From: Marsupella aquatica
Lineage: Eukaryota; Plantae; Marchantiophyta
Direction: 5' to 3'
NCBI GenBank assembly: GCA_973895155.1
Contig: OZ316891.1
Span: forward strand, 10,417,875-10,481,874
DNA: 64,000 nucleotides
A program made the translations under genes and the position numbers. Below the pieces are notes generated by a model that worked only from the letters and a program-made list of their open reading frames with translations, did no database searches and was not told where the DNA came from. Each line of letters starts with the position of its first letter. The stretch's first letter is position 1. Positions 1 through 35,289 of the stretch are shown piece after piece.

Positions 1-1494
1 CACCATTGGGGGAAATAGTGAACCCTTACCAGAAGCCGATAGCTCTAGCAGATTGGTTCATTCAACATTTTAGTGAAGCAGGGGATTGGGTTGCTGATTT
101 ATGTGCGGGGAGTGGTTCCCCTGGGCCCTCACTCTTACTATATTAAGTGAACCCCCCTGAGAACACACACCCCCCGTGTACCCCTTCTTAATATTTTTGT
201 TCACAAAAAAAATCCCATTGTTAATGTAAAAATATTAACTTTTCCTATTAAATTTTATCCTTTTGTAAATTATAATAGAGTTTTTCAAGGAATTGAAAAC
301 ATCCTTGAATTTTTAGAATTACAAATATCATATTGAAATAGATAAAACTTTATCTTTCATAGGGGACTTGTATGTTATGCTCGATCTTCAAGGTACATAT
401 TTTATATATAAATAAACAAAATTAGTACGAGAGAAAATTATAGTTCTTCCTATAGTTTACACACAGCCATGCACTCTTGTCTTAGTGTTCGCAAAAGTGC
501 CTCTGAACTTCTAGTTTCATAAGTACTATATATGTATAATCCAGGAATAATACTCCAAAGTCTGAACCAACTATAACAAACATTGTTGAGCGCCTGAGAC
601 CCCTCCCTCAACACACAAACACATTTGGCCTCATACCTGGTTGTTTGATTCAAGGGAATTCAAAAGTAATCTTGTCCTTCCATGTGGGATTGATCCATGG
701 ATCCCCATCAATCCTAGTTTCCCAACCAAGTTGGGCCCAAAGATTATGGCCCAAAGATTATGGCCCAACATTTACTCAACTCCCCAGTTAACTCCTAAAC
801 ATGCGGGTAAACATGTCTACCCAAACCCATTTGTTTCACCATAAGGGGACCAACGAAACCAAACTTGCCTTAAGACGATAAATAATTAAATGTTTGATTT
901 ACTATATGGACACATGTGCAAATGAAGTGATGACATGTGTGCCAACCATATAGTGACGCTTGTACTTGGCATTTTGGGTACCCTTGCATAAGATTTATGT
1001 GACATGTATTTGATAAGAGTCTTATTACTAATATTATGGCGAATGTATATAGAGGGATGCTGCCTACTTTAAAAACTATTATAAAAATTAGTTTGCATTA
1101 CATTAAAAATACTCTTGTGTTGTTCGCACGTCCTCCCTGTATTCGTAACACTAAGGACCCAGGGAGTGGTTCGACCTCATGCGCTACCTTGTTAGGAAAA
1201 CGTCTGGTGACAGCCGTGGAGCTCAGTTCAAGCCACATGGATTGTATCCGGACCCGACTTATCACGCTGGATGAATCGTGGGACTTGAATGATGAAGCAA
1301 CAGAGGAGGGTACAGGACCCATGAGCTTTGAGGTTCAACCACCTATTGGTGGTACTACGAGCACCCTGACCACTGGAACTTGCATCATTACAACCGCGGA
1401 GGAGAATGACAATTATGAGGATGAAGAGGATGAAGTGGATGAAGTGGAACATGAAGCTCCGGCACTTGATCTTGGCTCATTCCTTGAGGTGTAG
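1..1494 (+). pseudogene. C-terminal part of a beta-class amino (N4-cytosine/N6-adenine) DNA methyltransferase, interrupted by a MITE; 5' part lies outside the window
   Basis: Frame starting at nt 3 reads PLGEIVNPYQKPIALADWFIQHFSEAGDWVADLCAGSGS. Removing the 119-1164 insertion and one TSD copy continues in frame into TSCATLLGKRLVTAVELSSSHMDCIRTRL and an acidic tail. This matches the N6_N4_Mtase C-terminal pattern (HPTQKP..L...I...S..GD.VLD.F.GSGTT..A....R..IG.EL). Confidence 0.85.
119..1164. mobile_element. Non-autonomous TIR DNA transposon (MITE, about 1.05 kb) with 8-bp TSD
   Basis: Termini CCCTGGGCCCTC...AAGGACCCAGGG. Flanked by the direct repeat AGTGGTTC (111-118 and 1165-1172). Removal restores the methyltransferase frame. 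Confidence 0.9.
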
Positions 1495-1517
1495 ACTTTA
1501 GTTTCATTAGTTCTCTC

Positions 1518-2182
1518 CCCTGGGCCCCCAGCATTATTAATAATGGGCTGGACGTGCGAACGGATGAAGGGTGCAAAAAATCTGATTTGAGATTAATTTT
1601 TATAATTGGCTTAGAAATATCAAGGGATGGTTTTATTCAAAGAACCTTTTCTAACTAATATAGGCTTATATAAATGTCACCCAAGTTAATATGCTTCAAG
1701 AGGTGATGTAATATGGATGTGACACGCGTCACAATAGGATTGGTCCTTGTGGTCACCCTTTATTGGAACATGTGTATATGACATATAATTATGCTTGCAA
1801 CATCTATGATTCAGAGTAGTTTAGGACTTTGGAGCTTTTGAACCCTGACTACCCTGCCATGTGGTTCAAAAATGCCCCAAAGTTGAAGTTTGGGGTTAAA
1901 GGGTCACGAACACAAAAATGTATGTACCCAAAACCCTTCTAAAACACTCCCATCAGTTTTAGAACCGTTTGCACATGATAAATTTATAACTTTTCAAGGC
2001 TTTCATAAATGGTGTAAAATGTGAAATTATAATATCTCAAAGGGGCAGATTTATTCTCCAAAATTAAGTTTTTAAGAATAACAAGAGAAATTTTTATAGG
2101 CTTCCAAAAATAATAAGGGGTACTAGGGAGGGGGGTGTACGCACGTATACCTCTTTAGTTTACAAAGGCTGGGGGCCCAGGG
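1518..2182. mobile_element. MITE (665 bp), related to 119-1164, opposite orientation
   Basis: Perfect 15-bp TIR CCCTGGGCCCCCAGC / GCTGGGGGCCCAGGG. 8-bp TSD GTTCTCTC (1510-1517 and 2183-2190). Confidence 0.93.
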
Positions 2183-2279
2183 GTTCTCTCATGTTGTATC
2201 TATTGATCCAAACTTGTGAAATATTGAGGAAGATTATGATTGGACTATGTTCTTATTTCACAAAGTAATGTCTTTGCAG

Positions 2280-3191
2280 GAACCAAAGGAGAATTTTTTA
2301 CTGAAACATGTTCTGCATAGATTCTCACACAATCCTTCTAGTGGGTTTCTTTTGGACAATAAAATATTGAGCCAACTTGAACCCTGTCAATATTTGGAAG
2401 ATGAAATAATGAAATTTTACCTACAATTAATAACCAAGGAACATGGAGATCTGGCTCACTCAGTAAAAACATTATCCTCTTTTTTTTACCCTTGGCTTGT
2501 TTCAAGGATTGAAACAGAACCAGCTGAGACCTTGTTGGAATCAATTCAAAAGATGCGGAATTATTACAAGCCACCATTTTCCCAAATTGAGGTCATTCTC
2601 ATGCCAATTCACATGAACATGCACTGGAGTCTGGTTGTAATATGTTTGGATCAGATTGAATCTTCGATCAAAATGTATCATCTAGACTCTCTTGCCGGTC
2701 TACACTCAACCCATGTAATTGGATCAATACTGAGCAGGTATGTATATATTCTATTACATTTTTTCCATTTTAAATTATTTATGTGGCATATAAATATAAA
2801 CACTTTGGACTAAGAACTTTGAATGATAATTTGCATATATTTTACAATGGAATGGGAATTATTTTTTGGAAAAGTTCCAATGGGAGTTGTGGAGATTTAC
2901 AATCCAATGGTAAGGATTTGAAAAGTTATTTCAACTTTTAATTAGTTGAATTATTAAACACTTTGGACTAACTTTAAGATTCTTTCTCAGGTACCTCAAC
3001 AACCAAACAATTCAGATTGTGGTCTATTTGTTCTTCAAAATATGGACGAAATCAGAATTCAATGGCATATTACACAATGCCTTGATGCACAGTCTTTATT
3101 TACCAAAAAATGGTACAACTCTAAAAGAGCATGTAACCTTAGAAAATTCATTCGAGATCAAATTCTAAAATTGATGCATGTACCTGTTTAA
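2280..3191 (+). CDS. Ulp1/SENP-family (peptidase C48) SUMO protease domain, transposon cargo, intron-containing
   Basis: YLEDEIMKFY...LSSFFY...ILMPIHMNMHWSLVVI...YHLDSL, then after introns (acceptor at 2990) VPQQPNNSDCGLFVL. The His/Asp/Gln/Cys catalytic set is complete. Confidence 0.88.
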
Positions 3192-3229
3192 GGACATCAA
3201 TCTCAATCCTCTGAAGGTGAAGAACCTCA

Positions 3230-6200
3230 CTCTAATTAGCAGACTCTATAATCTTTTTAGTTTTTGCTGCTATCTGATTAGTACTTAAAAGCGCAAAGTT
3301 GTATGCATACACCGCTGTTGATGATAAAACTAGTTCATCTTGGAGAAGTTGATTAGATATATTATCTTTCTCTGGAAAATATTTCCCATCAATAGCAGAC
3401 TCAGCACTTGCCTCAGTTGTGTACTATGTGATTTTGATTCTCTCAAGAATGTCTGCAGTTCTTGTCAAAATCTTTGACACCTTTGCCATCCAAAACAACT
3501 TGCCTTCTGGATCCTTGTGTGCCGCTACACATATCATGGACCACTTATTGTTAACTTACATATCTCTGAAATCTCCAAATTCAGCTTGCTTTCGTCGAGG
3601 TCCGGAGTACATAATTCTCTGTGGTCCAGCAACTTTGTCAACCAAAGTTGGATCAACACCTTTTTTAACAAGTTCATTTCTCACCCTTCGAAGTGTTGCA
3701 CCTTGATTTTGTTGCGGCCAAACCCACTCAAATAACCACTCACCTTCCTCTAGGTGGTTTTTGATAATATCTTTTTGTTTCTCAAAAAAACTCATCCATC
3801 AAAGTTTGTCTTCATTGTCAAAGTAATTGAAACCTTCCTGAATAGCTTTTTCATATTTCACCAGAGTAGTTAACGCACCATCTATATTGGAAGAATCATG
3901 GACATCATCCCTCTCAACACCTTTTGCTGACTTCAGTGACATTTGTGCATCAACCCACATTCTTGAAGTTGGAATGTAATTGACAAACGCCACTGCATCT
4001 CCCCAATCCTGGGTCGTGGAAAGATGTTTCCCGTGAAATGTTGTCTCTTCGTTTCTATCCTCCATGACTCGTTTGAATCTGAATTGCCTTTGAAAAGTTA
4101 TGAGATTGAGATCTCTCAAGACTCTACCTGAGACTCCCTTCTCATTTGGCTGGTCGGTTCCATTGACAAATTTTTGAAAATCGCTACTTCATCCACAAAT
4201 ATGATCAAAGCTTCAGGTGAATATGCTTGTCGAATAATATCCTCAAGAGTCTCCAAGCGAAATGCTTTGTGCTTGTTTAACCTAGATGAAAATTTACTAA
4301 ACATCTGATCTATCTGGTCATGTGTATGACCGACCAACAAGAAACCCACTTTAATCTTGTCAAAAATCTTCAAATCTACTAACATGTGAAGATAAGCCAT
4401 CAAAAATTTATTCTTGTTTTCCCTAGTGGTATTATCTAATTGAAGATATAACACTCTTGGTAATGTCCCATCCCATGTATTCAATACATTTTGAATAACA
4501 TGTATGGTCAAGTTTGCATCATTATGGATATTGGGATATGTCAAATATACTTTTGCTGCAAGGTTCCTGTTGAAGATGAGACAACCTACAACATGAATTG
4601 GAATGAAATATTTTTCATCCATATTCTTCGGACAACGAAGAAAATGTGGTAGCTTTGTTTTCTTTTGATCCATACCATCTATACAAATACCCAAATACTT
4701 GTTGGGTTCATCATAGCATTTTTTACGATGCTTGGCTAACTTCATCCTTTCCAATGATTGTACTTTTTGATGCTCCATAAGGGCATTAATGTACTTTCTT
4801 GAAATGATACAATAACAATGAATCAAAAATCAATAACTAAGGATAACCTTTGACAAATATTGAAGTACATGTCATCAAATTAAAGTTGAAGGTTGTAGTT
4901 AGTGGTGCTTATTTTTATCCTCTTCAGTTGTTGCTTTGTCCCAAAGAACCTTGAATTCAGTACAAGGACCATAAGTAGAAAATCGACTCCTTTTAGGTAT
5001 TCGTACATTTGGAAACTTTTTTTTCCAAACACGCAAAAAATAAGAATATGTAACTTGTTGTTCTTCTCGCAACATTGTTTCAGCTTCAAAGATTCCATGT
5101 ATATATCTCTTGCTTTGTCCAATTGTCTGGCAAGTGATGAATCTCTTTATGGGGAAGACTATCCATATTGTTTTGGAAAAAATCTTTCAACCATTCCACC
5201 AGGTTTAGAAATGAAGGTGAGTCTTCCTTACAAAAGGTATCTCGTTCAATCCTTGTAAACATGTTTGCATGGATTGTTGTCAATCTATTATTACCTAAAG
5301 AATATAGTTTCTTGAATCCTCCTCTACATATAGGTTGTCCATTTACACTATATCCACGAGAAGTACTACTACTGTTCATGATACAACCTCGTAGCAAAAT
5401 ATTTTTCTGCAAGTGTTTAAGACCAAAATAATACTTGCGTTGTTTTGAGCATTCCTCTAGACCCAGAGAGCTCAAGCAAAACTTGTCACAACAGGGATAC
5501 TTAAAAATATCTTTAATTTTGCATTTTTTTAGATTTGCAATGGTAAGTCTATCTTTTCTAATCATCTGATCTCTGATTTTTTTGGTGGGTCTTGTCACCT
5601 CTACTCTATCTTGAATAGTGTCAGGAGAACCTACCCCCTCACTATTTTCTAGTGAATTAAAATTCAAAACAAGAAGATCTTCTGTAGAGTTGTTTCCACT
5701 CTCCACATTTTCTGTAACTGTTTCATGAACAATCTCACATCCCAGGATCTCTTCAACAACATTTGAGGTTATAGCAGTCTCTCTGTCATTTGCAGCCACA
5801 TCTGATCTCTCTTCAGAGTCTTTTGAAAATGTAATAGGTGTTCGGAGATTTCTAGTTTGAAATCTTCTAATGATATTCACATCTTCAGTCGCAGTACCGC
5901 CCACTTGTCTCTGAGACTGTAATCCCAACCTAGGTGATTCTTCTTGACTTGAGGGCTCATCTTGACCATTGAATAATCTTTGGACAAGTTTCAATTTAGC
6001 ATGTACCCTTGAATTTTTGGGCCCTCTCTCCGGCAGCTCACTTCGCAACAATCTCCGAGGAATTTTTTGGACACTAGATCTCTTCCCTCTTTCGTTCTGC
6101 ACTTGCCGTCCAATGGAAGATCCAAAAACCTCACACTGCATCCTCGCCAAAGGGCTTCGAAGCCCCATGTTGTTAGTTTGACCATTCGGTGAAATAACCG

Positions 6201-7075
6201 ATGGGAATACCGATTGGGATCCATGGATCCCAACTTGTATTTGTCCTTCGGGACTTCGAAGTGAAAACTTTCCCACTTGCTGTTCTGCGTCATGACTTGG
6301 CAATTTTCCGTTGCGCAATACGAACTGGGATCCACGTATCCCATTTTGCATTCCACCATCGGAACTCGGGTTGGAAGTCCGCAAGATTGGTGACTCGGGC
6401 ACAGGATTCTGCAAAATACCATGAGGGAATACTAAGGAATCCATGAGGGGATACTAAGGAATCGTATTTGACCCATGGAATTTGGTACTGAAGGAGACGA
6501 AATAGGCAATTTGCATTCACCGTTTCTCAACATTCGAATAGGTAATACCAAGTTGGTATTCGACCCACCAAATTTGGCTCTGAGGCTGTCCCTCCCTGCA
6601 ATTCCGGCACATTCGGACTCCTCATTTGCTCAAACTGTGATTGAACACTGGACACAGCTATCTTCACTCCCGGAGAACAAGACATTGGAAAAACCAACAA
6701 AGATCTTCAGGCGGGCCTACATGGTAACGTTGTTCTTGGCATTAAAAACCGGGGCCTTAGTCTTCGAAGATCTATTGGGGTTCGCGGAGAACCAGGTGTC
6801 TCTGTCGTAGGAACTACATTAGGGTTCTTTACAAGTAGACGTCGTTTAAGAGGTTTACTTGGAGAGACATAGTATGAAATCGGAGCACCCATAACACTCC
6901 TACAAGACTCTGAATCGGACTCTGATTTCTCAGATTCTGAGGAAAATGAAATCTCTGGCACTACTCTCTGTGAGGCTGGTAATTCATTCATCAAACGAGA
7001 TGGAATAAATTTTTGAACAACATCTGGCAAAGATGCATCTGAACTATAAATTGATTCATCACTTGAAGACGCCAT
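3230..7075 (-). pseudogene. DUF7869-type (Sola-like) RNase H-fold DDD/E transposase, frameshifted
   Basis: ORF pieces 6707-7075, 5086-6444, 4116-4826, 3799-4119 and 3556-3795. Cys-rich N-terminal region CCDKFC...ICRGGFKKLYSLG. Core motifs ICIDGMDQ, LQLDNTTRENKN and FLLVGHTHDQIDQMFS. Superfamily assignment is from memory. Confidence 0.75.
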
Positions 7076-7855
7076 AGAGAATCAAACAAGGGTTGTATAG
7101 GAGTACGTATTCCTATCCAACAGAGATACTTCAGATTACAATATTCTATGAAAACAACTACTCAATAGTGAACGAATCTCAAAGTAATCACGAGAAATGA
7201 AGATGAAAAACAAATGCAAGCTCTTCCTTTTATAGTTTTCGGGGGCATTGTACACGTGGCATTCCCTGATTGGTCCGTACGAGGGTTTTTTCAAGTGAGA
7301 GTCTGTCTTTTCCAGGACTGCTGAAATTTAAATTGTAGATTTTCGAGGAAGTCGCCATGGATCCGAGTTGGTCTTCAAACTGGAATATCAAGGTATGCGA
7401 TGCAAAAACTTCAAAATGTAGAAGTTGAATACTAGATGGGATCCATGGATCCCATCTGGTATTCATCCTCCTATTTTCCCGATGAGTTTTTGGACTTGCG
7501 AAAAAAATGGGATCCATGGATCTCAGTTGGTATTCATGTCGAAAGATCTCCTGATGCAAAGTTACAGGTGGAAAACATTGAGGTTGAATACGAGAGTGGA
7601 TACTTGGATCCTGTCTCGTATTCATCATGCGTTATGGGCTAAAAAAATTCCGAACATGTCGTCGGGTTAACTTAACTAACTGTGTGAGTCGACTGTAGTT
7701 CGCGGTTAGTTTTTCGCAGTTTTCCGGTTTACCATAGTTAAAAATTCAAATATTTTTAACCCAAGGTTAAATGGAAGCGTCAAGAGAATGATTTGGTGCG
7801 GTTTTTGTCCATGTTCAATAGTTGAATCCGAAATGGGATACGCCGTATCCCATTT
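6214..7855. repeat. Dispersed palindrome family with core GGGATCCATGGATCCC
   Basis: 6214-6233 (perfect 20 bp), 6326-6343, about 7354-7364 (partial), 7426-7465 (40 bp, 1 mismatch), 7508-7525, 7585-7624, 7831-7855. Confidence 0.9.
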
Positions 7856-8154: not shown

Positions 8155-10938
8155 TTCTCGTTTGGTGGTCATACTTCTCGTTTGGTCCGTCACTGTGTTT
8201 GATGTGTCCATACCAGAGAGATTCACCACTCTTGTCACAGGATCATTAGAATTAGAGAGAATGGAGGCAAAGTCAGTTTTGTTTAGATTTTTCCTTTTCA
8301 AACCACGAGTATTTGGTGTGGTTATGAGAACTGTGTCATGCCGATGGGAGTCTTGTGGAGAGACAGTCCCAGTTGCATGTCCCTTTCTCTTCATTGACTT
8401 GGTCACGATATCTCCGTTAAGGGGAGTACTTCTTTCCAAATCAAAGTCCGCCGCATTGGAAAGAAGCATGTTGGTCGCATCTTCAAATAACCTCGGCGAA
8501 CCTGCTTGATCGGCGGAATGGAACGCCAATTCCCATATAGTCGGTCCCTTTCCTATGTTCAACCCTTTTTTATATGCACTATATCCCGCAACTTGAGACA
8601 GGGCTCGGTTTTGGTCAACTTTGCATGCTTCAAAAAGACCAACTTTTTTCTTTGTAGCCCAGGCTTTCATAGACGCATGCCTTGATTCTGACCCTGTACA
8701 ATTGGGAATCAAGGCACCTTCTGCGCTTTTGCTCTGCCATAGTCCGAATGCAATAATCAGTACTAGCATTGTATTACTAGCGCCCGACGCTGGCACCGAC
8801 AAGTATTTATAACATATGTGAAATACAATTGCAATTATGATTTTGGAACTTTGTGGACATGTTGGACTCAAATACGAGAAAATCATACGGTCAGCGTCTG
8901 GCGCTAATATAAAGTTGATGGAAATGAAAGACAAGAGAGGAGATGGATGTCATACCACTCGAATAAAATTGCCCCACTGGCGCCATTGAATAACCCACCA
9001 GGATATCCAGCTTTGTAGCATCATGAGCTTTCCAGGGACACAGTTTCCTGATTGCCACCAAACCACAATCTCTCAGGACACGCGATACGCTACCACAAAT
9101 GTTGGAGCGTTTCTTAGTTTCTCCCAAAGTCTCCGATGTTCCGATTGACATTCTTCAAGTACTCCTTCCTTGGAATGCCGATGGAAAGATTGATAAAAGT
9201 GAAATGCATCAGAGCGTTCCCTCTCCGGGTCTGGGTGTGCACCAAAAAAAACATTCCGCACAGCATTCCATCCAGCTTGTGCATTGTCCGCCATAAACCC
9301 TTGGATGACAACCTCCTATAATCCATTCTCCTTGCAAACCTCAATCATAACTCTCCAAGCCTTTTCGAAAGACTCAGTGTCTTCACCTTTCAACTCGCAT
9401 GTGAAAATTGTACATAGTGCACGGAAGTTATGGTCGTAGACATGCGCGCTAAAAGTCAACCAATCGGTTGTGATACGGTGCATCACATCAAAACTGACCC
9501 AGGCTCCTTTGAGTCTTCCACCAGGTTGCATTTGTCTCAAAAGATCCACACCGGAACCGTGACCCTTCATGGTCATTTTAAAGATGTGAGGCCTGTCGTC
9601 TTGACATCCCTGACCCCGGAGCAATACCTCTGGAGAAACGATAGGTTAATCCTCTTCTGCATTGGCGAGAGAAAATCTAGTTCACCCCGCCCCTTTTGGT
9701 CTATCCTAACGCTCTGACAAAGAGATGCAAACTTTTGGGGAGTGGAAAGTACCATCAGAGACTTCCATATTTCAGTTTCTTTGATATCAACCATGTCGTC
9801 AACATGTTTGCAGAGAGCTTTCACTATGGACCCTGTAGCAGAATTCAAGATCCCAGCTGGTTTTGCGAGAGGATTGGCTTCATGATTTTTTTAATTAAAT
9901 CCTCAGCCATCTTCTCCGCACTCCTACAGAAGGTTTTTCTACCTGGATGGATATGATCACCTATATGAATCGCCAAGCGGGATATATGACTACATGTTTC
10001 CGCATCAAGTAATACTTGCGGGTACATATAGAACAAACGGGCAGGCAGTCTTTGACACAAAAAGGAATCTGATCACAATAATGACATACAACACCGCCCT
10101 CTTTGATAAAAGATCTGACAGCATACGGACCACTAAGCTTTGGAGTACCGTGCCATGCCTTAGCATTTGCCTTCTTTTTCCTTTGGAAGTACTCGTAGGA
10201 CTTGTTCCGACATTCAATGAATCCCGTATAGGTAACCTTACCGAATTGCCAAAGTTTTTTTGGCTGAACATTCGCGGTAGTTGGAAATATGCATGTCCAA
10301 ATGTAGCAATCTTTGGCACGGTCCATGTCCCTAAGCCTAGAGCCTTTAGAGAGCATCTTGTCAATTGGTGGCAATTCAAACATGACGTTCCCATTATACT
10401 TAGTTGGCAGACAAGAGACTTGCTCATGTTTGAAATCACCCGCTGATATGAACCTTGATAACTCGCTATGACCAGTGGATTTGAGTAACGTATCCATCGC
10501 ACTCCACCGATACATGATCTCCAACTGGTTGGAGCTTCCTGGAGTCTCACCTTTAACGATAGCATATTGCGGGACTTTCATTTTCAACGTAGGACTTGGA
10601 GTGTGATCTCCATCTTCACTAGAAGAAATCTCGACAACATCAAATGGAACTTGGGGGACACTAGACGGTCCTTCATGTTATCTTACTCAAAGTGAGTACA
10701 AAATCCCCGCATATAGATGCCAAAACCGTTCACCATCATCCACATTGAATGTTGCTGCATCTTTGATGTCATCACTGGTTTTGAGCTCTCGAACAATGGC
10801 CTCAATATCATTCATCTTCAAATCAAATCTCCTGCAAAGGTGTCTCTCCCAAACCTGCTTGTAGGTGTCTTCCACAGGGACGGGGATGGTCACAATATCC
10901 CCAGTCTCGAATCGGGATAGAACGATGGACCGAGACAT
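8155..10938 (-). pseudogene. Mutator-like (MULE) transposase with N-terminal WRKY/GCM1-like Zn-binding domain, frameshifted
   Basis: CHYC..CVKDCPARLFY...RLAIHIGDHIHP (GCM/FLYWCH-like). WVSFDVMHR..W.TFSAHVYD. MADNAQAGWNAVRNVF...RSDAFHFYQSFHRH (DxxH in place of CxxH). WISWW. NCTGSESRHASMK. Intron at about 8734-8955. Confidence 0.78.
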
Positions 10939-11900
10939 TGCAATCGAAAACAAATAACAAGGGCTGTAATGTTTCGAGGAAGAAAAGTCTATGGTAATAT
11001 GGATCTTGTATCAGTCAAACCTGGGAACTTCATGTAAACACATCCGTTTGTATAAGACATAAACCATAGTCGACATAGGATCCGTTGGCGCCATAAATGA
11101 ATTTTGTCATTTTTCCCCGATAAGTCCGGATGTCAGACGCATACAGAATGCCAAAAAAGACACCACAAAAATCTTTAACAGACTCTAAGATATTGTATAG
11201 TTGAAACAATTTGAGTAGCGCCTGGCGCTAACTAAAATACCTCAAACATAATAGGCCCCAAATCTCGATATTCCATACTAGCGCTTGGCGCTAGTATACG
11301 AAAAACCCTCCAGATATCCATCAATACTATGAAATAATTGGATTTAAATGATCAATGAAAATGTCAATTCTTTTAGAACTATGGATGAAAAATACTCGTT
11401 ATCACTAGCGTCGGGCGCTAGTATAGGATACAAGTAATGTTTCCCAAAAACCATGAAAACAATACACATTTCTTTAAATATGGGGTTGTTTTGACAAAAT
11501 TTATTTATTGGAGCCACCATTTCAGACCTATTCTATAGCTGATGTTTTTACTAGCGCCGGGCGCTGCCATGACAAACATCCCAATTATCTACTTCAAGGA
11601 AAGGTATTTATAATAGCGCCCGATGCTAGTATTTCGTGTGAGGGAGGAAACGGTCATAACGGGAACATTTAACGGTAACTTCTGAGTTCCGTGTGTGTTA
11701 CCCCTCTTCTACCGCTTGATTTAGCTAATTCAGATCTCCGTATACAGACGTTGGAATCTGCCAAACTTACGAGCTTCTCCCTTTAATCGAAGAGTTCCGC
11801 TGAACTGCATCCTCCTTCTAGAATATATTACACGTTGAGAGTTGATGAGAGTTCCATAATTTCATTGTACGATAGTTTGTACGCTTCTGGAAGGAAGACG

Positions 11901-14900
11901 ATGGAGGTATTCCCCTCTTCATCCAGAGGGTATAGTGTTGTTCTTGACCAAGACCGAGCTTATTCTGAATCCTCACAGTCTTTGTTTACTGGTTCAGTTT
12001 ATACACGTCATGTAACTCGTTCCACAAAGTTGCTGCCTCCTACTTCTATTAGCGTTGTTTTGGTTCCTAAATCTCTGCGTAGAAAGATGGAGACCCTCGA
12101 CACGATTGCGATCCAAGATGTTTTGGACTGTGCACTTACGGAGACTGATCTCATCTCCAAACATGTCATGTGTTTTGGAAAGGATTCTCATGGATTTGAC
12201 AAGGAGCCGCCTCGAATCCCTCTATGCCAATTGGTTCACATGGAGGTGGTTTGTACTTTGCAGAAAGATAGCTCTTCCATCGAGAAGCTGAAAGACTCGT
12301 TTTGCAGTATGGGTTACAATTCATCCATAGGAATGCGTTTCTATGTGCAACCAACGAATGAAAATGGAATTGTTCTGACCTGTACCCAGGAGATTCGTGA
12401 GTCATGGGATCCAATTTGGCAATTGGAGAACGAGAAGTTTGAGGCCTGCTGAATGCGAGGCTGACCCAGATTTTCTCGTGTTGAAGGATAAGATGTTCTC
12501 TGTCTTCGATGGAAATCACAGGCTGTACTCATGGACGCTTGTTATCGAGGAGAACCCTGACAATCCAAAATACCATCCTCGAGTGCTCTGCACAATATTT
12601 AAGGGAGACAAGGGATCTCTTATTGAAATTGAGGCAACTATGCACACCGTGAATCAGTAAGTTCCCGTTCTTTTCTGATACCTTCTTTGAATCTTGCGAG
12701 TGTTCTATTTAAGAGCGCTCGGCGCTGGTTATAGATAAATTGTACTTTGACTCTAACTCGCTGCTTCTCTTTGTGTAGGCTTGGCCAAGCCGTTGTTGAG
12801 CCATCCTGGATCCTCGATGCAGATAGAATTAAACGCATGACCTTGAGTATTACAATAAACTGATTGACCCGACTAATTTCAAGAAGTTTGAGAGCATTCG
12901 GCTAAAGACTCGGAAGGGGTCGTGGTATACGAAGAAGATGCCACAAGAAGCTCTTGTTTACATTCTATGTGAGAATAAGATAAAGTCCTATTCGCACAAA
13001 TTCAAGCTTGACATGGAGGCAGCCAAGGCTCAAGGGAGTTCCTGGTTGGTGGACGAGATTTCCAAACGCCATGCGACCATGATGAAGGATGCAACCAAAG
13101 ACTGGGCAGTGAAATCCTCAAAAATTACACCCTTGTTAAGTCCTGAATTTGAAGATTTTCTTAGTACATGTGCAGAAATGTATGCTGTCACAGAGAGAAA
13201 CAAGAGAGAGAAGAAGCCTGACGCCGTTGTATGTACAATGGACCGCGCCCGATTGTTCACTGCTGTTTCTGCCCTAGACCCAAAGTTGCAAAGCACCCTA
13301 CTTGTGGCACATTGCAATCCTGAGTTGCGGAGACAGTTTTTCCACCCGGCAAGTGTTAACAACGACCCAGTCAAACAATGGTGTCATACTTGGATCACTT
13401 GGAATAGTGTAGAGGGAATTGCTGTCGGCATGTTACATTCATGTCTGCGTGAAGTAGAGCAAACGATGCTCGCGACTAGATTAGAAGAGTGGAATTGTGG
13501 TTTGTTTGATGATCTCGTTCAGTTTGTTACCAATGAATTCAAGAAATATGGTGATTCTATGAAGAGTAAGTTCTTTCACACTATGTGGCCTTCAAAGTAT
13601 CCAGACAAAGAAGACTATACCCAGAAAAACCAGAAGCGGGCTAAAAGGTATCTTTACAGGTTCTACATGCACATGGAGGTAACCAAACCTGATTACTTTT
13701 GGGCATATCCTGCAGCTTTCATGAAGTGGATTACAATAAGTGAGGATGACGCCATAGCTGATTTGTACTCCATGTACCTAGCGGAGGGCATATTTCCTCC
13801 GAGACCTATGACAGAATGGGAGAGAACTCACTGCCCCTGGTATCTAGATACAGATAGATGGGATTCTCCTTTTGATCAAAGGGAGAAAGATGCATTCCAT
13901 AAGCTTTCAAAGTCCCACCTACCAGCAAAAGTTGTGTCCAACATGAAGCAGGACCTGCTCGATGATGTAGACAAGTTTGCCACTGACTTGCAAAGTATCT
14001 ATGAAACGACTATTGTTCATGTGGACCGAAGTCGCAAACCTCATGCGAAAGCAAAAGCGGAGTTAGTAGCACCAAGCGAGTCAACAAAATCTGGGAGGAA
14101 AAGTGAGTATAGTGTTCCATAGTTTGGCCAGCGCCTGGCGCTGGCTTGAACTGTCATGCAAATCCACATTTCTTTCTACATTCTTAGGCCATTGTAGAAA
14201 CCTAAGTGATTTGCATTTGGTTAGCGCCTGGCGCTAGTTTGTTTGAAAACTCGGATTTACTTGTTCTAACTATGACCTATTGATAATTTAGGAGGGAGGA
14301 AGTCTAATACAGCGGGAATAGGAGATGCTAAAATGGATGCTACACCTGAAGTTTCTGAGGCAAACACCGGAGCCCGATCGGACCCCATTACTCCTGTCGA
14401 CAAGGGGAAGGTAATAGTTTCGGTCGACGCCACAAGTACCAGGAAGAAACAAACAAGAGCTATCAAAGGTGGACCTTCTTCAAGGGAGAGTGTTGTAGCA
14501 TCTGGTGTCCAACCTGAAGTTGCAAACTTCAAAACTAGAGTGTCTCGTCATGCCATGAGACAAGCATATCCGAATTTTTTTACTCGACTTTCAACAAGGG
14601 GGAAAAACCTGAATGGGTTAGTAATGTGGAGAAGTGGGGGAAGGATCTCGTTAAGTCGGGATATAAAGAGAAGGGTGTTGTGCGGGGAGGAAAAGAAAGA
14701 TAGTTTGGAATGGATGCGGGTTTCATTTATCTACCGACCGGGTTCAAACCAACGATCATAGATAAGAAGGTTCCTAAATGGAACACTCCAGATCACTCCA
14801 TGGCTAGATCTTTTTTCAAGTCCATGGATCCATTTCTATCAGATGATGGATTCCTTGCAATTCTACACAATGGGGAGTATGATCCCATGTCTCAAGTCAT

Positions 14901-17231: not shown

Positions 17232-17890
17232 ATACAATCACTTATTGCTTGTTCCTCCGGTTTGTCACGAAGAACGGCATCACATTGTTCAGTTTGGTGA
17301 TCACTTTAAGCTAGCATCGAGCACTGCTTAATCTCTTTCGATGTTTCTGGATGGAGTCGTCTTTGGCTTAGTTTTTAGGGTTTTTCCCGGTTGTTGTCTT
17401 CAGGAATTCCATAGTTTTTCCTGCAGTTGTTGGCTAGCGCCGAGTGCTGCTTTTGTTTTACTGGCAATCCTCAGACGGGGTTGACCATGCCTTCTGCATA
17501 TCGGATTTCCACACCTGCACTTGTTAACTTATAAGTGCATTTTTTGGACCTGCGCCGAACGCGTTTTGTATTTTGCGACTATATATGACAGTTTTATTTT
17601 CCCCCTGCGCATTTTGACATATATTGGTCTCAAATTTTGTTTATCTCAATTGTGAGACGGTTTTATTTGTTGTAAACTACATGATTCCATTTAGTCCGAT
17701 TTCCTTTGACTCAAATTTGACCGTCTTGATTTCTATACCAGTAGTTTGAAATGCATATTTTGTCCCCTTTTTTGGTGATCAATGTTCACTGCTAGCCAAA
17801 CACTGTTCATTGGTAATAGTTTCTTTGGGCTGATAATAGTAACTGTTTGCTGTTACTGTTATCTGTTTGCTGTCGTTTGTAAATTTCCCC

Positions 17891-19375
17891 CATCCGGCCT
17901 CTCTTTGTGAAAAACATCTTCTTGGTTTCACCTTCAATGTCTGCAGGTGAGAAAGTTTAGCCAAATGTTCCATTCAAGTGGAACGGCTTTCCACGCGCAT
18001 CATTCTTTTTTATATTGATGCCTACTGGAATTTATAAGTAATCTTGGTTCATTAGGTTCAATTTCCCATGAAACGATGGGAATATCTTAGGACTTCAAAA
18101 TTTCAAAATTCAAGGCTAATCAAATCTGACCCAGGCATTGAATTGAATCAGACCATAGTTGCACGAATGCTTAACAATTTGCAAGAGAACTAGCATGGCT
18201 GAATTGATGTTGGTCGGCATATCAGTACTCTGTACTAAATCCTAATAAGCAACTGCATCGCTCACATTCTTATTTATGGATGCAAATGGGCTATTTTGGT
18301 ATTGTTGATACCTGCACCCACAGTGTCAAATTGTGTGAAAGTGGGGCCAAATGATTGGCCCGTTTTTGAACCCTGGTAGAGCTTCCCATCCGTATGGTAC
18401 CCATAACTATTGGGCACCCATCCTGTCGCGTTGTAGAAAGTGAACTTCTCATCGGAGAATCCTATGGTGGCACTTCCTAAACGTGTTGCACTCAGTCCTG
18501 CGAGGTAATTCACAGTGACCTCAAAATAGTAAAGCCCTTTTAGGGGGACTGGGTGGTCAGCCTGAACTGCCACTACATCATCGCGCGCCTATGCAATAAG
18601 CAAACCTCTTCATGTTAACATGGCAATATCGATCGCGTCTGATTGCGTCCAAAGAGCTGGGCAACTTAGGTTCCTCTACTTTGACTCCTTTACATCCCTG
18701 AAGACACATAATGATGAAGCCAATCTTTGACTGATGCTACTTTCATATTGCCACCTTGCCCACCAGAACTGGCCTCAACAAGTAAGGTAGAGAAGTCTGG
18801 ACGAAACCCCTTAATGCTATCAAGCTAGAGCCTAGAAGCCTGGTCCCAGATCCGTATTGTGTGAAGTGAGCAATTAAGAGTCGCACTGGCCACCATGGGA
18901 TAAAATATTTGCTACTACTTGAATGGAAGGAGGAATGGATGCTGGTCCAAATTGGGGGAAGAGAACTGGGCTTGACAAAGCCTTTCTTGAAACATGACAA
19001 CCGACTGCATCTTAATTGGTAGTCGTTGTGAAGAAAAAATCCTCATCTTGGACTTGAAATTGCAAGGTAGGCAAGAGAAGCTAATATATTCTCTACTGAG
19101 AAAAGTCCTTTCCAATTTGGGTCAAAAAGAACTGTCAAGGCTGATATGAGAGGTTGCGACTCTAGCTTCCCACCCAATCAAAACACAAGAACATTCTCAG
19201 TCATTTATTGAAAGGGTGGCATGAATGATGCCATTGTAGGTCTTGGACTCTGGAAGTTGATGGTTTGTCGATGCAATTTTTTGGTGAGTAGGTGTGAGTA
19301 AGTTCAGTTCTTGAATTCATGTCCCTTCTAGTCATTTATCCTGGAGGGTTCTCTTATCTGTTTAGTGCATCACCA
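17891..19375 (-). pseudogene. Copy A of the MFL1-carrier/SPRY chimeric segment (RanBP9/10-type SPRY), truncated
   Basis: AVQADHPVPLKGLYYFEVTV...IGFS...GWVPNSYGYHTDGKLY.GS...FGPTFT..DTVGAGIN. Near-identical to the reverse complement of 32853-34340. Confidence 0.8.
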
Positions 19376-21788: not shown

Positions 21789-23117
21789 GTATCGAAAAGC
21801 CACTCCGGCGCAAAAAAGAGTCTTGGTAAAAGCCGAAATATGTACGAGTGAAAGGGCTAAAATAAATGAGCCTCTACTGAACAGTCACACAGGAAATTGA
21901 AACGATTGAGCTTCCAATTCAACTTTGCAACACAGTAGACGGAATAGTTTTTGGACTCGTAACACAGTAGACGAAATAGTTTTTGGACTCGTATGTTTCT
22001 GTAGTAGTAGGGATTTAAGATTTATTTGTAGTGGTTTTTCTTACTCCAACTAGTTAAAACAAGTGTGCTCCAAGTCCCTGGGCTGTTGAACAACGATAAC
22101 GGATGTTCCCAAGCCGTACATCATTTAATACTTTTGAGGAACTTCGAGGTATCTTTCGAGGAAAGACTGATTTGTGCAACTCAAGCATTGATGAACAGCC
22201 GGCCGTGCCCTACACTGGAAAGATTTCACCACATCCTCGGCACTTGGATTTCACGTGGTGGTCGCATCAACTGAGTGAATTGATGAGAACACAACCTGTC
22301 CCGTGTTGAAGTCAGAAATCAGGGACTTCTGTTTTGTCGAGCCACTTGGCGAAGGGTTTTGCAGAGAAGGTGCTCTATTGTGAAGCCCGAGTCGTGTCCT
22401 ATCGGTGCCGCACTGGACCAGTGGAATGTCAGCAACACTCTGAAAGCTGTTAACGTGAATCGTATGGCAGACAAGGTATGATGTTCAAAATAAAACATCT
22501 GAGGCATTATTTTATCAGTCGTGTTATCTATCGGCTGATGCAATAGTCGTTTCTTCTAGAGTGCAAGCATAGATTTGAGATTCTCTCCTAACAATTCGAT
22601 TCCTTTCTATAGATTAATGTCGAGGGTGCTTGGGGTTTAATGCAATCATCAAATTGATCAAATCATAAAGGCAATTAGTTGTGCACTCACATTTTTCTGA
22701 ACCTGTCAGAAACACAACGAAAATAATTTGTCTGGACTGAGATTAGTCTTTCACGGTCGGCTTAGACATCTAGGTGTGTATTCTATGTAATAAAATGATA
22801 AGTACATGCCATGAGTCAGAAGTAAAGCAGGACCCTTACTGTTGTGTCCTCTCTTGTCCATCTTATGTTCTTTAGTCAGTGGCTCCTGTTTTGTTCTACG
22901 CTGCTCTTAGGCGCGTCCCGACTAGGGTTTACCCTGCGCTTTTTACATCTTCTTTACACTTTATCCTCCCACAATGGGGTGCCCATCGTCTCCTCCTTTG
23001 ACTACTCACTCATTGTATTTGACCCTGAATCAATACTGGAATTCCATTGTACTTCTGTACTCCAAGAGAGACAATAATCGACAAGATTCCCTGATAGAAA
23101 TCCTCCGCATGACAGGT

Positions 23118-23360
23118 TGTTGGAACTTGTGTACTCTCACAGGTTCCACTTGGTTACGAGTCAGAGAGTTGTTACCTCACCTGGTGCTGTGTTCCGTTGT
23201 CCCTCTGACGACATGTGCTGTGCTAACGGTTGTCTCCTGGTTGTTAGACCTCGGGCCTGCTTCCGGTGCTGGCTTGCCTTCGCCTCCTTCTTCTGGCCCT
23301 ATTTAGTTCTTTACTGCTTCCTCATTTGCAGAGCAGATCACAGTAATCTAGCTTTCAACA
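23118..23360 (+). repeat. 5' LTR
   Basis: TGTTGGAAC...TTTCAACA. Two substitutions seen relative to the 3' LTR. Confidence 0.97.
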
Positions 23361-23372
23361 TGGTATCAGAGC
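23361..23372 (+). promoter_or_regulatory. Primer-binding site (initiator tRNA-Met)
   Basis: TGGTATCAGAGC immediately after the 5' LTR. Confidence 0.95.
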
Positions 23373-23484
23373 ACAAGTCTCTACGCACTCTCTAGATGAG
23401 AAATTAGTGCAAGCTACAGGCTAGTAACCCAGGTCGAAAGTTCCTCGTGGTTAATACTGTTGCGACATTCTCTGTCATCCGACC

Positions 23485-26400
23485 ATGGATATGATGAAGA
23501 TGTTTACTGAGGTAGATAAGCTGGAAGGAGCCAGCAATCATTTAGCATGGACCATCTTTGTGAAGAATCTCCTGAAGCGTGACGATCTGTTCACGGAACT
23601 GAACTTTGGAGTCAAGCCGGATGCCAATGGTCAAGTTCAGGATGGTGGGGCACACCTGACTGAAAGTGAGATCGCAAAGAAGAAAGTGAGGGCCACCTCT
23701 ATTCTTGCAGCTACAGTGAAAGCTCAGTTCTTGCCCACTGTAGATAAGTACTCTGATGACCCAGCTCAATGCTGGGCACATTTCCAACAACGATTCGGTG
23801 GCGACCTATATCAACGCAGACTGATACTGGAAGAGAAGCTACAAACTGTTCGCATGACCGACGGCACCCCTGTTGAGAAATACATCAACACAATCAACAA
23901 CCTCGCTGGCCAACTGGCCAGCATGGATGCTGCCATCGATGACAACAAGCTCATTCACCTTGTGCTCCGTGGACTACCTGCGAGTTGGGGAACCTTTGTC
24001 TCCATCTTCTCTGCTGACCTTGCCCGTACACCACGACCTTCGTACAACAGCCTGCTGGAGCGTATGCAGGCCGAAGAGCTCTGGAAGCTCAATATTCAGT
24101 CACGTTTTGAGCCTACCGAGGAGGCCCTAATTGTGTCTTGGTTCAATCGATCCTCAGGGCGTGGAAGAGGCCGTTTCACCCCCAGACCTGTTGTCAGCTA
24201 TCCTCCTCGGGTCAACTCTTATCCGCGTGCAACCGGTGGACGCGGCATGCGACGCCCTACCTCCTGTAACTATTGTGGCAAGTCTGGACACTGGGAATCC
24301 GACTGTGACCTCAAAAAGGTCGACGAACAAATCTCGCAACTTCAAGTTTGAGCTGCCAATCTCCGACGTTTTCGTCCTCAGGCCAATCTAGCTGAAATAT
24401 TTCATGAAGTCGAAGCTCCGTATGATGAAGAAGAAGAAGCTGACCCGGCCGATGAGAACGACGACTCCGGTGCAGATTTGGAGGCCAATTTCATTGAGAT
24501 CCTCCCTAGCACTAGCACAAACGATTGGATTTTAGATTCAGGCACTAGTACTCACGTCTCTGGAGACAAATATGTTTTCTCTGGTGGCATGCATCACTCC
24601 AGTGGTGCCGGCTCCGTTGCCACCGCCAGTGGCACTAAACTCCCTGTTGTTGGAAGCGGTTCAGTCCATATTGCTCCCAATAAAACCGTCCGCAATGTTT
24701 TGTACGTCCCGGGTATGACACAAAATCTCATGTCCATTGGCAATCTCACTGACGCTGGCCACAATGTCTTCTTCAATTCTCACTCTTGTCTCGTCTTTGA
24801 CAAGGATAACCCTCAGAAGATCTTCCTACGGGGCACCCGAGATCCCAGGAATCACCTGTATCAGCTTCCATGATCTCTTCCCTCGATTTCTCCTCTCTGC
24901 ACCACCGCTCGTCTTCGACCACACTCTCTCGCTCAGCCGGCACCAATGCTTCTTGCTGAATCGTCTCCCATGGAGGACGACATTGACCTCTGGCACATTG
25001 ACCTCTGGCTCCATCACATGTCACATCATAACTTGGCTCATGGCCTACCTTCCATCCCACGAGTTCAACGCTCTTGTGAGACCTGTATTGTGGCCAAACA
25101 CCACCGCGATCGAGTTCCAAAATCATCTGCGACCCGTGCCTCCCGACCACTGGAGCTGATTCATTCTGACCTCTGTGGTCCCCTTCCTGCCTCCACTTCA
25201 CACCGATATATCCTCACTTTCATTGACGATTTTTCACGTTTCACTTGGGTATACTTTCTCTCTCACAAAAGTGAAACCTTCTCTAAGTTTCAGGAATTCA
25301 AGTTACTCGTTGAAAAGCAGTTGTCCATGAAAATCTCTTGCTTACGTTCTGACCGGGGTGGCGAGTACCTTTCCTCTGAATTCCTCACTTTTTGCCGACA
25401 ACACGGGATCCATCGTCAACTCACCGTTGCTCGCACTCCTCATCAAAATGGTGTGGCTGAGCGCAAAAACCGTACTCTCTTGGAAGGTGCCCGTAGTCTT
25501 CTTCTCAGCTCCAACGTGCCAATCAATCTTTGGACAGAAGCAGTTGCCACAGCCAACTACACCCAGAATCGATGTGGCACTCGGGCTCTCAAATTGATGA
25601 CCCCCTTCGAAGCTCTTTGGGGTCAGAAACCACACTTGGATCACCTTCGGATCTTTGGCAGTCTTACCTACGTTCTTCTTCCTCCGCATCTGCGCTCCAA
25701 GCTGGGCGCTAAAGCAATACGCACTGTTTTACTCAGCTACGACGCACAGTCCAAAGCATATCGGTGCTTTGACCCCATTCGTAAACGTATCCTTATTGCC
25801 TCCAACGTCAACATCATTGAAGGTTCCTTTTACGACTTCTCTTCAAATCAAGAAGCTGTCACCAGTCTCTTCTTTCCGTTGCTTACTGATCCTGAGTTTG
25901 GTCCATCGGCCCAAGAGGGGGCAACTGCAGTCGACAACCCTTCAACTGCTGACGGCAATATTGAATATGTGACACCCCCTGACGAGGACACTGAGACTTC
26001 GGCCTGCCCTACGGCTAACTCTTCTCAAACTAGATCTCCACAGATTCCGGCTCCAATTCATGCTGCTCGACACTCCCAACGTGTGAAGCGTCCCCCACCT
26101 TGGCATCAAGACTATGACATGAGTTGGAGGCCTGACCACATGGACACCTTTCTCATTGAATCAGCCAAACCTGAATCAGACGAAATCTCTGAGATTGAAG
26201 CTCTCCGCCACCTCCTGTGGCGTGAAGCCATGCAAGAAGAGTTTGAGGCTCTCATGGCCATGGGTACCTGGGAGCTTGTTCCTCTTCCTGTCGGCAAACG
26301 AGCCCTGTCTGCTAAATGGATCTTCTGGTCTAAACCGGATCTGAATCCTACCCGATTCCGCTTGAAGGCACGCCTGGTGGCTCGGGGTCTTGAGCAAAAA

Positions 26401-27798
26401 TACGGCATTGACTATTATGAGACATTTGCCCCTGTGGTCAAATGGTCCACTCTTCGCACTATCATTGCTCTGGCCGTGGCTCTTGGATGGGAACTGCATC
26501 ACATGGATGTTATAACAGCTTTTCTCAACGGCACCATCTCTGAAGAATTGTACATGCAACAACCTCGTGGCTTTGAAGTCCCTGGACTTGAACACTTGGT
26601 TTGCCGTCTGAAGCGGTCCCTATACGGGCTCAAGCAATCTCCACGGGCCTGGTATGAAGAGATCGACGCTTACCTTCAGCGCAATGGCTGGACCCGGAGC
26701 ATGGCGGACAACAATCTCTACTTTCTCTGCGAAGGTACCTCTATTGTCATTATCATGATTTATGTTGATGATCTCCTAGTGACAGGAAACGACTCTCACA
26801 AAATTGCCGCCGTCAAAGACCAACTCCACCAACAATACAAAATGAAAGATCTCGGACCAGTGCAGAAGTACTTAGGCATCGAATTTCTTCGCACTGATGA
26901 CGGACTTCTTCTTCATCAACATTCCTATTGCCAGAAGCTGGTCTGCGAATTTGGTTTAGCCAATTCTAAACCTGAGTTCATTCCCCTACCAGAAGGGCAT
27001 GTTCTCACTTCTGAGACCAACACACCTCCTGTGGACATCACCGACTACTGCCATGCTGTTGGGAAACTCATTTTCCTCACTCACACCCGTCCCGACATTG
27101 CCTATGCTGTTGGCATCGTTAGTCGCTACATGACCAGGCCTCAACAACGACATTGGGACTCTGTCAAACACATTCTACGCTACCTCAGCCATACCACCGA
27201 TCATGGCATTTACTACTCACGCTCACCTGGAATTTCTCTTGCTGGCTACACCGACGCTGATTTTCTAGGCTGCCCTGAGACTCGCCACTCTATCGGCGCT
27301 TACTGCTTTCAGCTTGCTTCCGGACCCATTTCTTGGTCCAGCAAACAGCAACCCACCGTGTCCGATAGCACCACTGAAGCAGAATATAAAGCTCTTTCTG
27401 AAGGCGCAAAGGAAGGGGTCTACATCCGCCGCTTACTTAACGAGCTTCACATTACCTCCCCTCTTCAGGTGCCTCTTACCTTTTCTGGTGCTTCTATTCA
27501 CTCGGACCTCTCACTGGCCTCTTCCCCTTCCTCTCTCGATCTCCATTTGCACTGCGATAATCAAGGCTCCATTAAGCTTGCTAAAAATCCGGTCTTTCAT
27601 GCTCGCACCAAGCACATCGAGGGCAAGCACCACTTTATTCGTGAGCGGGTGCTAGAGGGGGAAATATCCCTCGCATATGTTCATTCTTCTGAAAACCCGG
27701 CTGATTTATTCACAAAACCTCTCGGGCGACTCAAGTTTGAAAAACACAAATCCTTTATTGGAGTCAACTCGGTTACACAAATATCTGCCGCCACATAA
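23485..27798 (+). pseudogene. Copia gag-pol polyprotein with two in-frame TGA stops
   Basis: Gag with CNYCGKSGHWESDC knuckle; protease WILDSG; integrase IHSDLCGP..LRSDRGGEY..NGVAERKNR; RT YVDDLL; RNase H YTDAD..DNQG. ORFs 23485, 24478 and 24946 share one frame, separated by stops at 24349 and 24871. Confidence 0.95.
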
Positions 27799-27824
27799 TC
27801 TCTTCTCCATCTCTATCTCGTCTC

Positions 27825-28433
27825 CTACCTCACCACATACAATTGTTCTACCTCTACCTCTCCTGTCCTTGGATGATACACAGACATAAATTGCTCCGCC
27901 TCTGCCAAGGTCCTAAACGACTCGTGACAATTCCCTGAGTACCCTGTCACCTGCTTATCCGCCTCTGCCCACGATCTATATATCCCCGGTACCGGTCCTA
28001 TTGCTACTGCATAATACTTCTTCAACATTATTGCTCCCCTGATCTGCAATCGATGTTCACTACTCCTGCGCCATGACTGCTGCCGATTCACTTCTCCGGG
28101 AATTCGCATTTCATGCTGCGCCAATTGCGTGATGCTCTCCACTTCCCTCACCTCCGCCGTCGCTTGACCTGGTGTGACATATGTCGACACTCCCGGCTGG
28201 ATTCTTGCTTCAGAGGGGGCACTTTCACTGTGGTTCTTCACTGTCTTCACTCTTTGCGGCTCCGGGGAGCTCCGGTTGTCCTTATTCTCTGGTTTCTCCT
28301 CTTGTCGCAACCACTGTGCCACACCGATGCAAATACTATGACACACTTGGAAACATAATCCCAACATTTCCACTACTACAGCTAGTCCCCTGACCATCGT
28401 GTGCTTCAGCTCTCGTCGTCGTCCCGGCTCCAT
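27825..28433 (-). CDS. Antisense accessory ORF of the Copia element: hydrophobic N-terminus plus RNase H1 N-terminal hybrid-binding (caulimovirus viroplasmin/Cauli_VI-like) domain
   Basis: Intact 202-aa ATG-started ORF ending in KKYYAVAIGPVPGIYRSWAEADKQVTGYSGNCHESFRTLAEAEQFM, which matches the YYAV..G..PGIY.SW..C...V.GY.GA.YKSF.T..EAE.F consensus. Confidence 0.85.
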   Translation of the reverse strand: MEPGRRRELKHTMVRGLAVVVEMLGLCFQVCHSICIGVAQWLRQEEKPENKDNRSSPEPQRVKTVKNHSESAPSEARIQPGVSTYVTPGQATAEVREVESITQLAQHEMRIPGEVNRQQSWRRSSEHRLQIRGAIMLKKYYAVAIGPVPGIYRSWAEADKQVTGYSGNCHESFRTLAEAEQFMSVYHPRTGEVEVEQLYVVR

Positions 28434-28494
28434 CGCTTCTGCGTGCGCTTCTGCTGTTCTGGTTCATCTTCCCTCTCTCTTCCTCGAGAGGGGG

Positions 28495-35186: not shown

Positions 35187-35289
35187 CCGTTTTTTCCTCT
35201 GAACCCAATTTAAGGAAAATTGAACTTTGACAATAACATGTCACGCGAATGGTCGCGTCACATATTACAGACAAACAACACATCCTCTA

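Follow-up and report, generated by a model that had tools for sequence, protein, structure and literature searches.

A transposon-borne DNA amino-methyltransferase gene and its adjoining Ulp1 exons in Marsupella aquatica: a candidate self-targeting accessory gene

Methyltransferases and SUMO proteases carried by transposons

Accessory genes that join a ParB-like part to a DNA methyltransferase have been described from DNA transposons of algae, and Ulp1 domains (SUMO proteases) are common on the transposases of Ginger1 and Mutator elements (PMC2836005). Here we describe a DNA transposon in a 64-kb stretch of the genome of the liverwort Marsupella aquatica (contig OZ316891.1, positions 10,417,875 to 10,481,874; "the window" denotes this whole stretch), which carries a predicted beta-class DNA amino-methyltransferase gene, hidden by an insertion, and behind it three exons of a Ulp1 protease. 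The accessory gene with its methyltransferase is transposon cargo of an already known kind, and the discussion below centers on how the Ulp1 exons may be connected with it.

In Ectocarpus, the element Sola1-1_Ec32 carries a gene for a 1104-aa protein with ParB-like and N4/N6 methyltransferase parts, placed opposite the transposase (PMC12477816). The element in the window resembles it in this combination, as far as the weakly ParB-like exon of relatives goes, and in its position on the strand opposite a DNA transposase, a likeness drawn from the description rather than from the sequences; in contrast, that paper contains no mention of Ulp1 or SUMO. The accessory genes PAG2 and PAG3 of red-algal Plavaka elements join PF01555 to SET and ParB to an oxygenase, with arrays of inverted repeats nearby (bioRxiv 10.1101/2025.02.11.637652), and they likewise offer a transposon-borne PF01555 methyltransferase fused to a second chromatin enzyme, as well as a ParB-like protein near inverted repeats. 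They differ in that the pairings are methyltransferase with SET and ParB with a 2-oxoglutarate (2OG) oxygenase, that the transposase is of the EnSpm/Plavaka type, and that no protease is present. The closest functional analogue is KAONASHI (KIU), in which anti-silencing genes of the VANC type, carried by VANDAL Mutator elements, have captured a Ulp1 domain (PMC13317346). There, too, a motif-binding accessory protein has gained a Ulp1 domain, whereas KIU is described without a methyltransferase, belongs to the Mutator superfamily, and relates to VANC proteins that cause loss of 5-methylcytosine (5mC).

Among the enzymes themselves, prokaryotic beta-class methyltransferases (CcrM, M.BceJIV, M.RsrI, M1.HpyAVI; HindIII-type) share with the family described here the fold, the motif order IV..X-I and, in the HindIII type, a DIPY motif IV (PMC12294265 for DIPY), but identity is limited to 15-20%, and the genes here bear introns, are transposon-borne and lack a partner nuclease. 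MpDN4MT1 of Marchantia and the bdelloid N4CMT are also eukaryotic beta-class amino-methyltransferases, and N4CMT matches the structural model of one relative (see below). The motif IV of DN4MT1 is TSPPY (bioRxiv 10.1101/2021.02.12.428880), where the relatives found here have Asp instead of Ser. Other methyltransferase clades are treated elsewhere (PMC4738411; bioRxiv 10.64898/2026.05.21.726589). No combination of an amino-methyltransferase with Ulp1 came up in our literature searches; the supplements to PMC12477816 and to the red-alga preprint may contain other combinations of domains, among them some with Ulp1.

The methyltransferase gene and its element

The features of the left part of the window are as follows.
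3 to 118, plus strand: 5' piece of the C-terminal part of a beta-class amino-methyltransferase, in which QKP is motif X and DLCAGSG motif I; the gene extends beyond the left edge of the window.
119 to 1164, no strand assigned: insertion 1, a non-autonomous element of 1046 bp with CCCTGGG..CCCAGGG ends and an 8-bp target duplication, AGTGGTTC, at 111-118 and 1165-1172.
1173 to 1494, plus strand: remainder of the methyltransferase, with the conserved EVQPP segment, an acidic tail, the terminal DLGSFLEV and a TAG stop positioned as in the relatives.
1518 to 2182, no strand assigned: insertion 2, a MITE-like element (miniature inverted-repeat transposable element) of 665 bp with CCCTGGG..CCCAGGG ends and an 8-bp target duplication, GTTCTCTC, at 1510-1517 and 2183-2190.
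3232 to 6453, minus strand: putative DUF7869 transposase, convergent with the methyltransferase (Pfam E 1.8e-46) and broken by stops and frameshifts.

Once insertion 1 and one copy of its duplication are taken out, a frame stays open from base 3 to the TAG at 1492-1494 and takes in QKP and DLCAGSGS, followed by the final strand and helix, the EVQPP segment and the acidic tail. A preliminary description of this DNA had proposed a methyltransferase interrupted within DLCAGSGS, and the restored frame bears this out, with the insertion lying in the last Ser codon of that motif. As in beta-class PF01555 enzymes, QKP (motif X) and the D-x-x-x-G-S/T-G of motif I stand near the C-terminus. Even the 38-aa 5' piece alone matches Pfam N6_N4_Mtase (PF01555; E 2.3e-4, short of the curated cut-off), the PHROG DNA methyltransferases (E 3e-9), M.RsrI and, at a loose E-value limit of 1, 756 phage records. 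With a profile built from the two halves, 958 proteins were found at E<=0.001 and 19 at E<=1e-10. The closest genuine matches (P0002-P0010) are 51-59% identical over the profile stretch, P0003 being too short for this comparison, and continue with the same EVQPP segment. P0001, which headed this search, proved to be an artefact of repetitive sequence and was set aside; two matches to scFv (single-chain variable fragment) sequences reflected chance GSGS similarity, and none of 49 pattern matches in viral contigs was related. In a FastTree tree, the window sequence stands beside P0002, grouped with L001, L002, L005, L006 (described below) and P0004-P0010 at a local support of 0.78-0.81; the tree holds 109 of 155 sequences, 46 that covered fewer than 58 of the 73 columns having been dropped, and is too short for dating or rooting. 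Judged by its motifs and matches, the gene is a hidden beta-class amino-methyltransferase.

Both insertions have the marks of MITE-like elements, namely terminal inverted repeats, target duplications, empty sites and no coding capacity, 1046 bp being long for a MITE; a second copy of either was not found within the window. Their empty sites were sought in contigs of seven public runs, X1-X4 from two studies and X5-X7 from three others, none of them recorded as RNA. Among the joints listed, the empty site of insertion 1 is present in five of the seven runs and that of insertion 2 in three, so the uninterrupted copies that the preliminary description had wanted sought do exist. Read by eye, a diverged copy with the empty site in X5 carries six silent and two replacement changes over some ten codons that span the junction. 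In each of X1-X4, hundreds of contigs with a likeness of 85-100% together cover all 30 bins of positions 1-7700, so the element around the insertions exists in many copies. The family has recently multiplied, copies with empty sites being among its members. Two stops in the window's transposase read Trp in all depth of four runs; the window copy is dead, yet the family need not be. Taken as a whole, the unit is a broken, dead copy of a DNA transposon that is present in many copies and has a putative DUF7869 transposase facing the methyltransferase gene, in agreement with the earlier suggestion of transposon cargo. No paper naming DUF7869 was found in the literature; the transposase, for which DUF7869 is the one assignment obtained, may be Sola-like, and the ends of the element were looked for but not located.

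A scan of metagenome contigs gave 26 loci, and the close ones, L001-L006, all from one data set, are 50-52% identical over 105-106 aa. All six end in a TAG stop, 3-7 residues past a terminal D/E-x-x-x-x-L motif, with GAGTAG as the final letters in four; in the window the stop follows that motif by two residues, as it does in P0002, P0006, P0008 and P0009. The methyltransferase lies on the strand opposite a DNA transposase in the window, L001, L004 and L006. In these three relatives the opposite-strand DUF7869 transposase ends 316, 341 and 469 bp beyond the stop, without Ulp1 between, and the contigs of the other three (L002, L003, L005) end 302-460 bp past the methyltransferase stop. Over 3238-5196, the transposase of the window shares 48-66% identity with that of L006, whose frame is open.

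Motif IV of the window's copy lies left of base 1, and what is said of it here comes from relatives, 16 of which were aligned and reach the motif. In 13 it reads D-x-P-Y/F (DIPH, DIPS or DLPR in the other three), and Ser occurs in 0 of the 16; in the closest relatives motif IV precedes motif I by 160-163 residues. Among beta-class enzymes, those of the HindIII type, which act on N6 of adenine, have DIPY as their catalytic motif IV (PMC12294265). Because the relatives have motifs of the DIPY/DVPY type and never Ser, N6-methyladenine (m6A) is a better guess for the predicted product than N4-methylcytosine (4mC), and is likely; of the earlier N4C/N6A assignment, the amino-methyltransferase stands and 4mC is improbable. 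The family need not be catalytically dead, to judge from these motifs. The model of the L001 methyltransferase exon (predicted local distance difference test, pLDDT, 84) has the circularly permuted beta-class fold and matches CcrM (E 1.5e-13), M.BceJIV, M.RsrI and N4CMT (E 6.5e-11); it is a prediction for this relative rather than for the window's copy.

Upstream of the methyltransferase exon, five of the six close relatives have a weakly ParB-like exon, seen with its GGNH motif in L002, L004 and L005 and by its 3' part in L001 and L003. Its donor is AG/GTA in phase 0 in 5/5, and the acceptor before the methyltransferase exon is in phase 0 in all four relatives with both intron ends located. 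In the predicted protein P0029 the ParB-like part and the methyltransferase share a single frame. Atlas assigned the upstream exon to DUF3723 look-alikes (0.96, low recognition), and its structural model had no significant match in the PDB. A DNA-binding part ahead of the methyltransferase is likely, "ParB-like" being a weak label for it. In six more distant homologs (P0020, P0033, P0045, P0057, P0074, P0094) the protein closes with PHD-like fingers rich in cysteine, and P0045 matches Pfam PHD at E 5e-4; the C-terminus of the methyltransferase family thus acquires other chromatin modules.

The Ulp1 exons and their possible splicing to the methyltransferase

The following features lie between the methyltransferase and the transposase.
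1489 to 2279, plus strand: candidate intron of 118 nt without insertion 2 (69% A+T, 42% T), with a weak donor (GTGTAG), a strong acceptor (TTTGCAG) and a TTGGACTA box at 2240.
2268 to 2270, plus strand: in-frame ATG four codons ahead of the acceptor and within the open reading frame 2220-2813, a possible start of a stand-alone Ulp1.
2280 to 2737, plus strand: Ulp1 (Peptidase_C48) exon 1, with HWSL and HLDS (E 5.5e-14; SENP2 E 2e-7) and a strong phase-2 donor (AG/GTATGT).
2837 to 2909, plus strand: Ulp1 middle exon of 73 nt, frame-restoring, with acceptor TTGCAT in the window copy and a strong donor (TG/GTAAGG).
2991 to 3191, plus strand: last Ulp1 exon, with PQQ and DCG (Pfam E 1.3e-5).

The Ulp1 assignment made in the preliminary description held, with one exon to be added. 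The first donor (GT at 2738) is in phase 2 and the last acceptor in phase 0, so 2280-2737 and 2991-3191 cannot be joined directly and the middle exon, previously missed, is needed. Its acceptor at 2835-36 is AT, not AG, in the window copy, and Ulp1 is not spliceable there. All three exons are open, with HWSL, HLDS, PQQ and DCG in frame, and contain the predicted His-Asp-Cys triad and oxyanion Gln of Ulp1/Peptidase_C48, residues whose individual roles are well established in the Ulp1 family. A 17-mer is identical in the two Ulp1 introns (2797-2813 and 2955-2971) and ends in a branch-point-like GGACTAA, and an 8-nt piece of it is repeated before the acceptor at 2279; the repeat suggests that the introns may share an origin. 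Several contigs of the seven runs cross the introns. The Ulp1 stop lies 40 bp from the transposase stop, and Ulp1 fills the spacer between methyltransferase and transposase, which measures about 1.06 kb without insertion 2. Among the 26 metagenome loci there were no Ulp1 matches at E<=1. Ulp1 thus appears to be an addition specific to the window's element family, missing from its closest relatives. One X4 contig (945 nt, depth 242) runs from 1270 through the empty site to 2896, so the linkage of methyltransferase and Ulp1 is not private to the window copy.

The GT at 1489 and the AG at 2278-79 are both in phase 0, as the preliminary description had noted, and without the second insertion they delimit an intron close to the roughly 120 bp proposed there. 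Its T content is as high as that of the two Ulp1 introns, and the acceptor (TTTGCAG/G; TTGCAGG occurs seven times in 128 kb) sits at the start of the Ulp1 domain. Of the four occurrences of the TTGGACTA box in the window, three stand 19-32 nt ahead of the three acceptors, a placement seen in 141 of 20000 shuffles and at 35 of 3405 YAG sites. These signals make it likely that the acceptor at 2279 is real; its use would require a coding exon in phase 0 ahead of Ulp1. The methyltransferase exon spliced from 1489 would provide one; skipping of the methyltransferase exon also fits, because the strong upstream donor of the relatives is in phase 0. We see about an even chance that the Ulp1 exons serve as an alternative spliced tail, reached more probably through 1489 than through exon skipping.

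A number of points weigh against such a tail or against the accessory gene that it would extend. The donor GAG/GTGTAG is the weakest of eight seen in the element family, the only one without A at +3 where the other seven read GTA; the ancestral TAG stop follows it by one codon, and it may simply follow from the last codons, GAGTAG ending four of the six relatives. The TTGGACTA test was devised after the motif was noticed. An ATG at 2268 is in frame with Ulp1. Peptidase_C48 was found in none of 34 homologs scanned out of 150 listed, and word-index searches for longer proteins, weak tests as they are, returned nothing. Evidence for selection on Ulp1 comes from seven codons, and four other listed coding differences are all replacements. 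As for the ParB-like domain for which a search had been suggested, HTH_ParB was detected in one of four upstream pieces at 19.9 bits, below the cut-off of 22.6; the model of the upstream exon is unusable (pLDDT 44), and in the window's copy this exon, like the position of motif IV, lies outside the window. The joining to Ulp1 had earlier been called probable. Since all six relatives stop at TAG, three of them running straight to the transposase without Ulp1, and the donor is weak, that grading was too high, and a splice from 1488 to 2280 is possible as a candidate joint only.

Three other explanations bear on the same evidence. The methyltransferase may simply end at 1494, with Ulp1 a small independent gene starting from the ATG at 2268, four codons ahead of its catalytic domain; this agrees with the position of the stop in the relatives and with the poor donor. 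However, the two frames are only about 100 bp apart after removal of insertion 2, which leaves little room for a 3' end and a promoter, and the intron-like composition, the TTGGACTA box in common with the other acceptors and the strong acceptor placed right where the domain begins speak against separate genes, which we regard as unlikely. A slightly smaller chance falls to passive capture, in which the Ulp1 exons and introns would be a functionless fragment of a host SUMO-protease gene and the acceptor at 2279 a leftover from that gene. Decay is the usual fate of captured pieces of genes (PMC13317346), Ulp1 is missing in the relatives and starts at an acceptor, and the middle acceptor is broken in the window copy. 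Against this, the three exons remain open with their His, Asp, Gln and Cys motifs, whereas the adjacent transposase has several stops; the end of the methyltransferase and Ulp1 share the deep X4 contig; and a diverged contig, read by eye, keeps the last Ulp1 acceptor and shows three silent changes and one replacement in seven codons. Least probable, and in our view improbable, is a single constitutive protein of methyltransferase, linker and Ulp1 made through GT1489. The matching phases, the 118-nt intron and a donor directly past the conserved terminal motif would suit it, but the weakness of that donor, the retained ancestral stop and the failure to find a fused homolog among the 34 scanned tell against obligate fusion.

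A proposed self-targeting gene and its surroundings

One further feature bears on how such an accessory protein would find its element.
6205 to 7636, no strand assigned: clusters of the palindrome GGGATCCATGGATCCC and its variants near the 5' end of the transposase, candidate binding sites of the accessory protein.

The GGGATCCATGGATCCC clusters lie at 6205-6362 and 7348-7636, and one further copy is found inside insertion 1 (692-705). Palindromes of other kinds stud L002, L004, L005 and L006; two types occur among these related elements, L002, L004 and L006 differing in this from L005 (GAGCGAGAC..GTCTCGCTC and CCGATCCAAACATCGG). This suggests binding sites that are family-specific and change along with the accessory protein.

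We propose that the accessory gene of the transposon encodes a beta-class DNA amino-methyltransferase, likely m6A-forming and likely preceded by a ParB-like DNA-binding part, and that this element family gained a three-exon SUMO-protease module, likely as an alternative tail of the accessory transcript. The chief product would terminate at 1494, where the ancestral stop lies. Use of the acceptor at 2279 would yield a second isoform, in which that acceptor is joined most probably to the weak donor at 1489 (methyltransferase-Ulp1) and, failing that, to the strong phase-0 donor further upstream (ParB-like-Ulp1). Binding of the ParB-like part to the palindromes of its own family would aim both DNA marking and SUMO removal at the element: the accessory protein would mark adenines at the palindromes and, in the window's family, also strip SUMO from nearby chromatin proteins. 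Such self-aimed anti-silencing would be comparable to that of VANC/KIU proteins, which direct Ulp1-bearing anti-silencing at VANDAL elements. We tentatively assign a probability of about 0.4 to this reading, in which the ParB-like front of a self-targeting gene takes on, by splicing, one of three switchable tails: an m6A methyltransferase, a SUMO protease, or the two together.

Several other features were observed in the window. Broken frames at 9073-11010 on the minus strand fit no Pfam family; by their motifs they may be those of a Mutator-type transposase, possibly the mobiliser of the insertions with 8-bp duplications. A Copia long terminal repeat (LTR) retrotransposon occupies 23115-28737, with 246-bp LTRs that are 98.8% identical, one stop in gag and one at the start of pol; within it, an antisense frame (27825-28463) matches Cauli_VI, the N-terminal domain of RNase H1, at E 5e-18. 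One segment is present in three diverged copies (80-89%) at 17887-19374, 32853-35200 and 44673-46763, none of them matched by Pfam, and its frames are presumably SPRY-like. A 429-aa open frame at 12833-14122 gave no significant Pfam match.

A multiplied family with empty-site copies makes the self-marking of transposon DNA testable. Should Ulp1 turn out to be a separate or dead gene, the element adds one more case to a class of cargo already known. A spliced Ulp1 tail would mean that motif-binding accessory proteins acquired a SUMO protease in two unrelated superfamilies of transposons, which would be a sign of SUMO as a general silencing step worth removing. Should the reading with switchable tails prove true, this gene would represent the first joining of a DNA amino-methyltransferase and a deSUMOylase in our searches, and an independent parallel of VANC/KIU.

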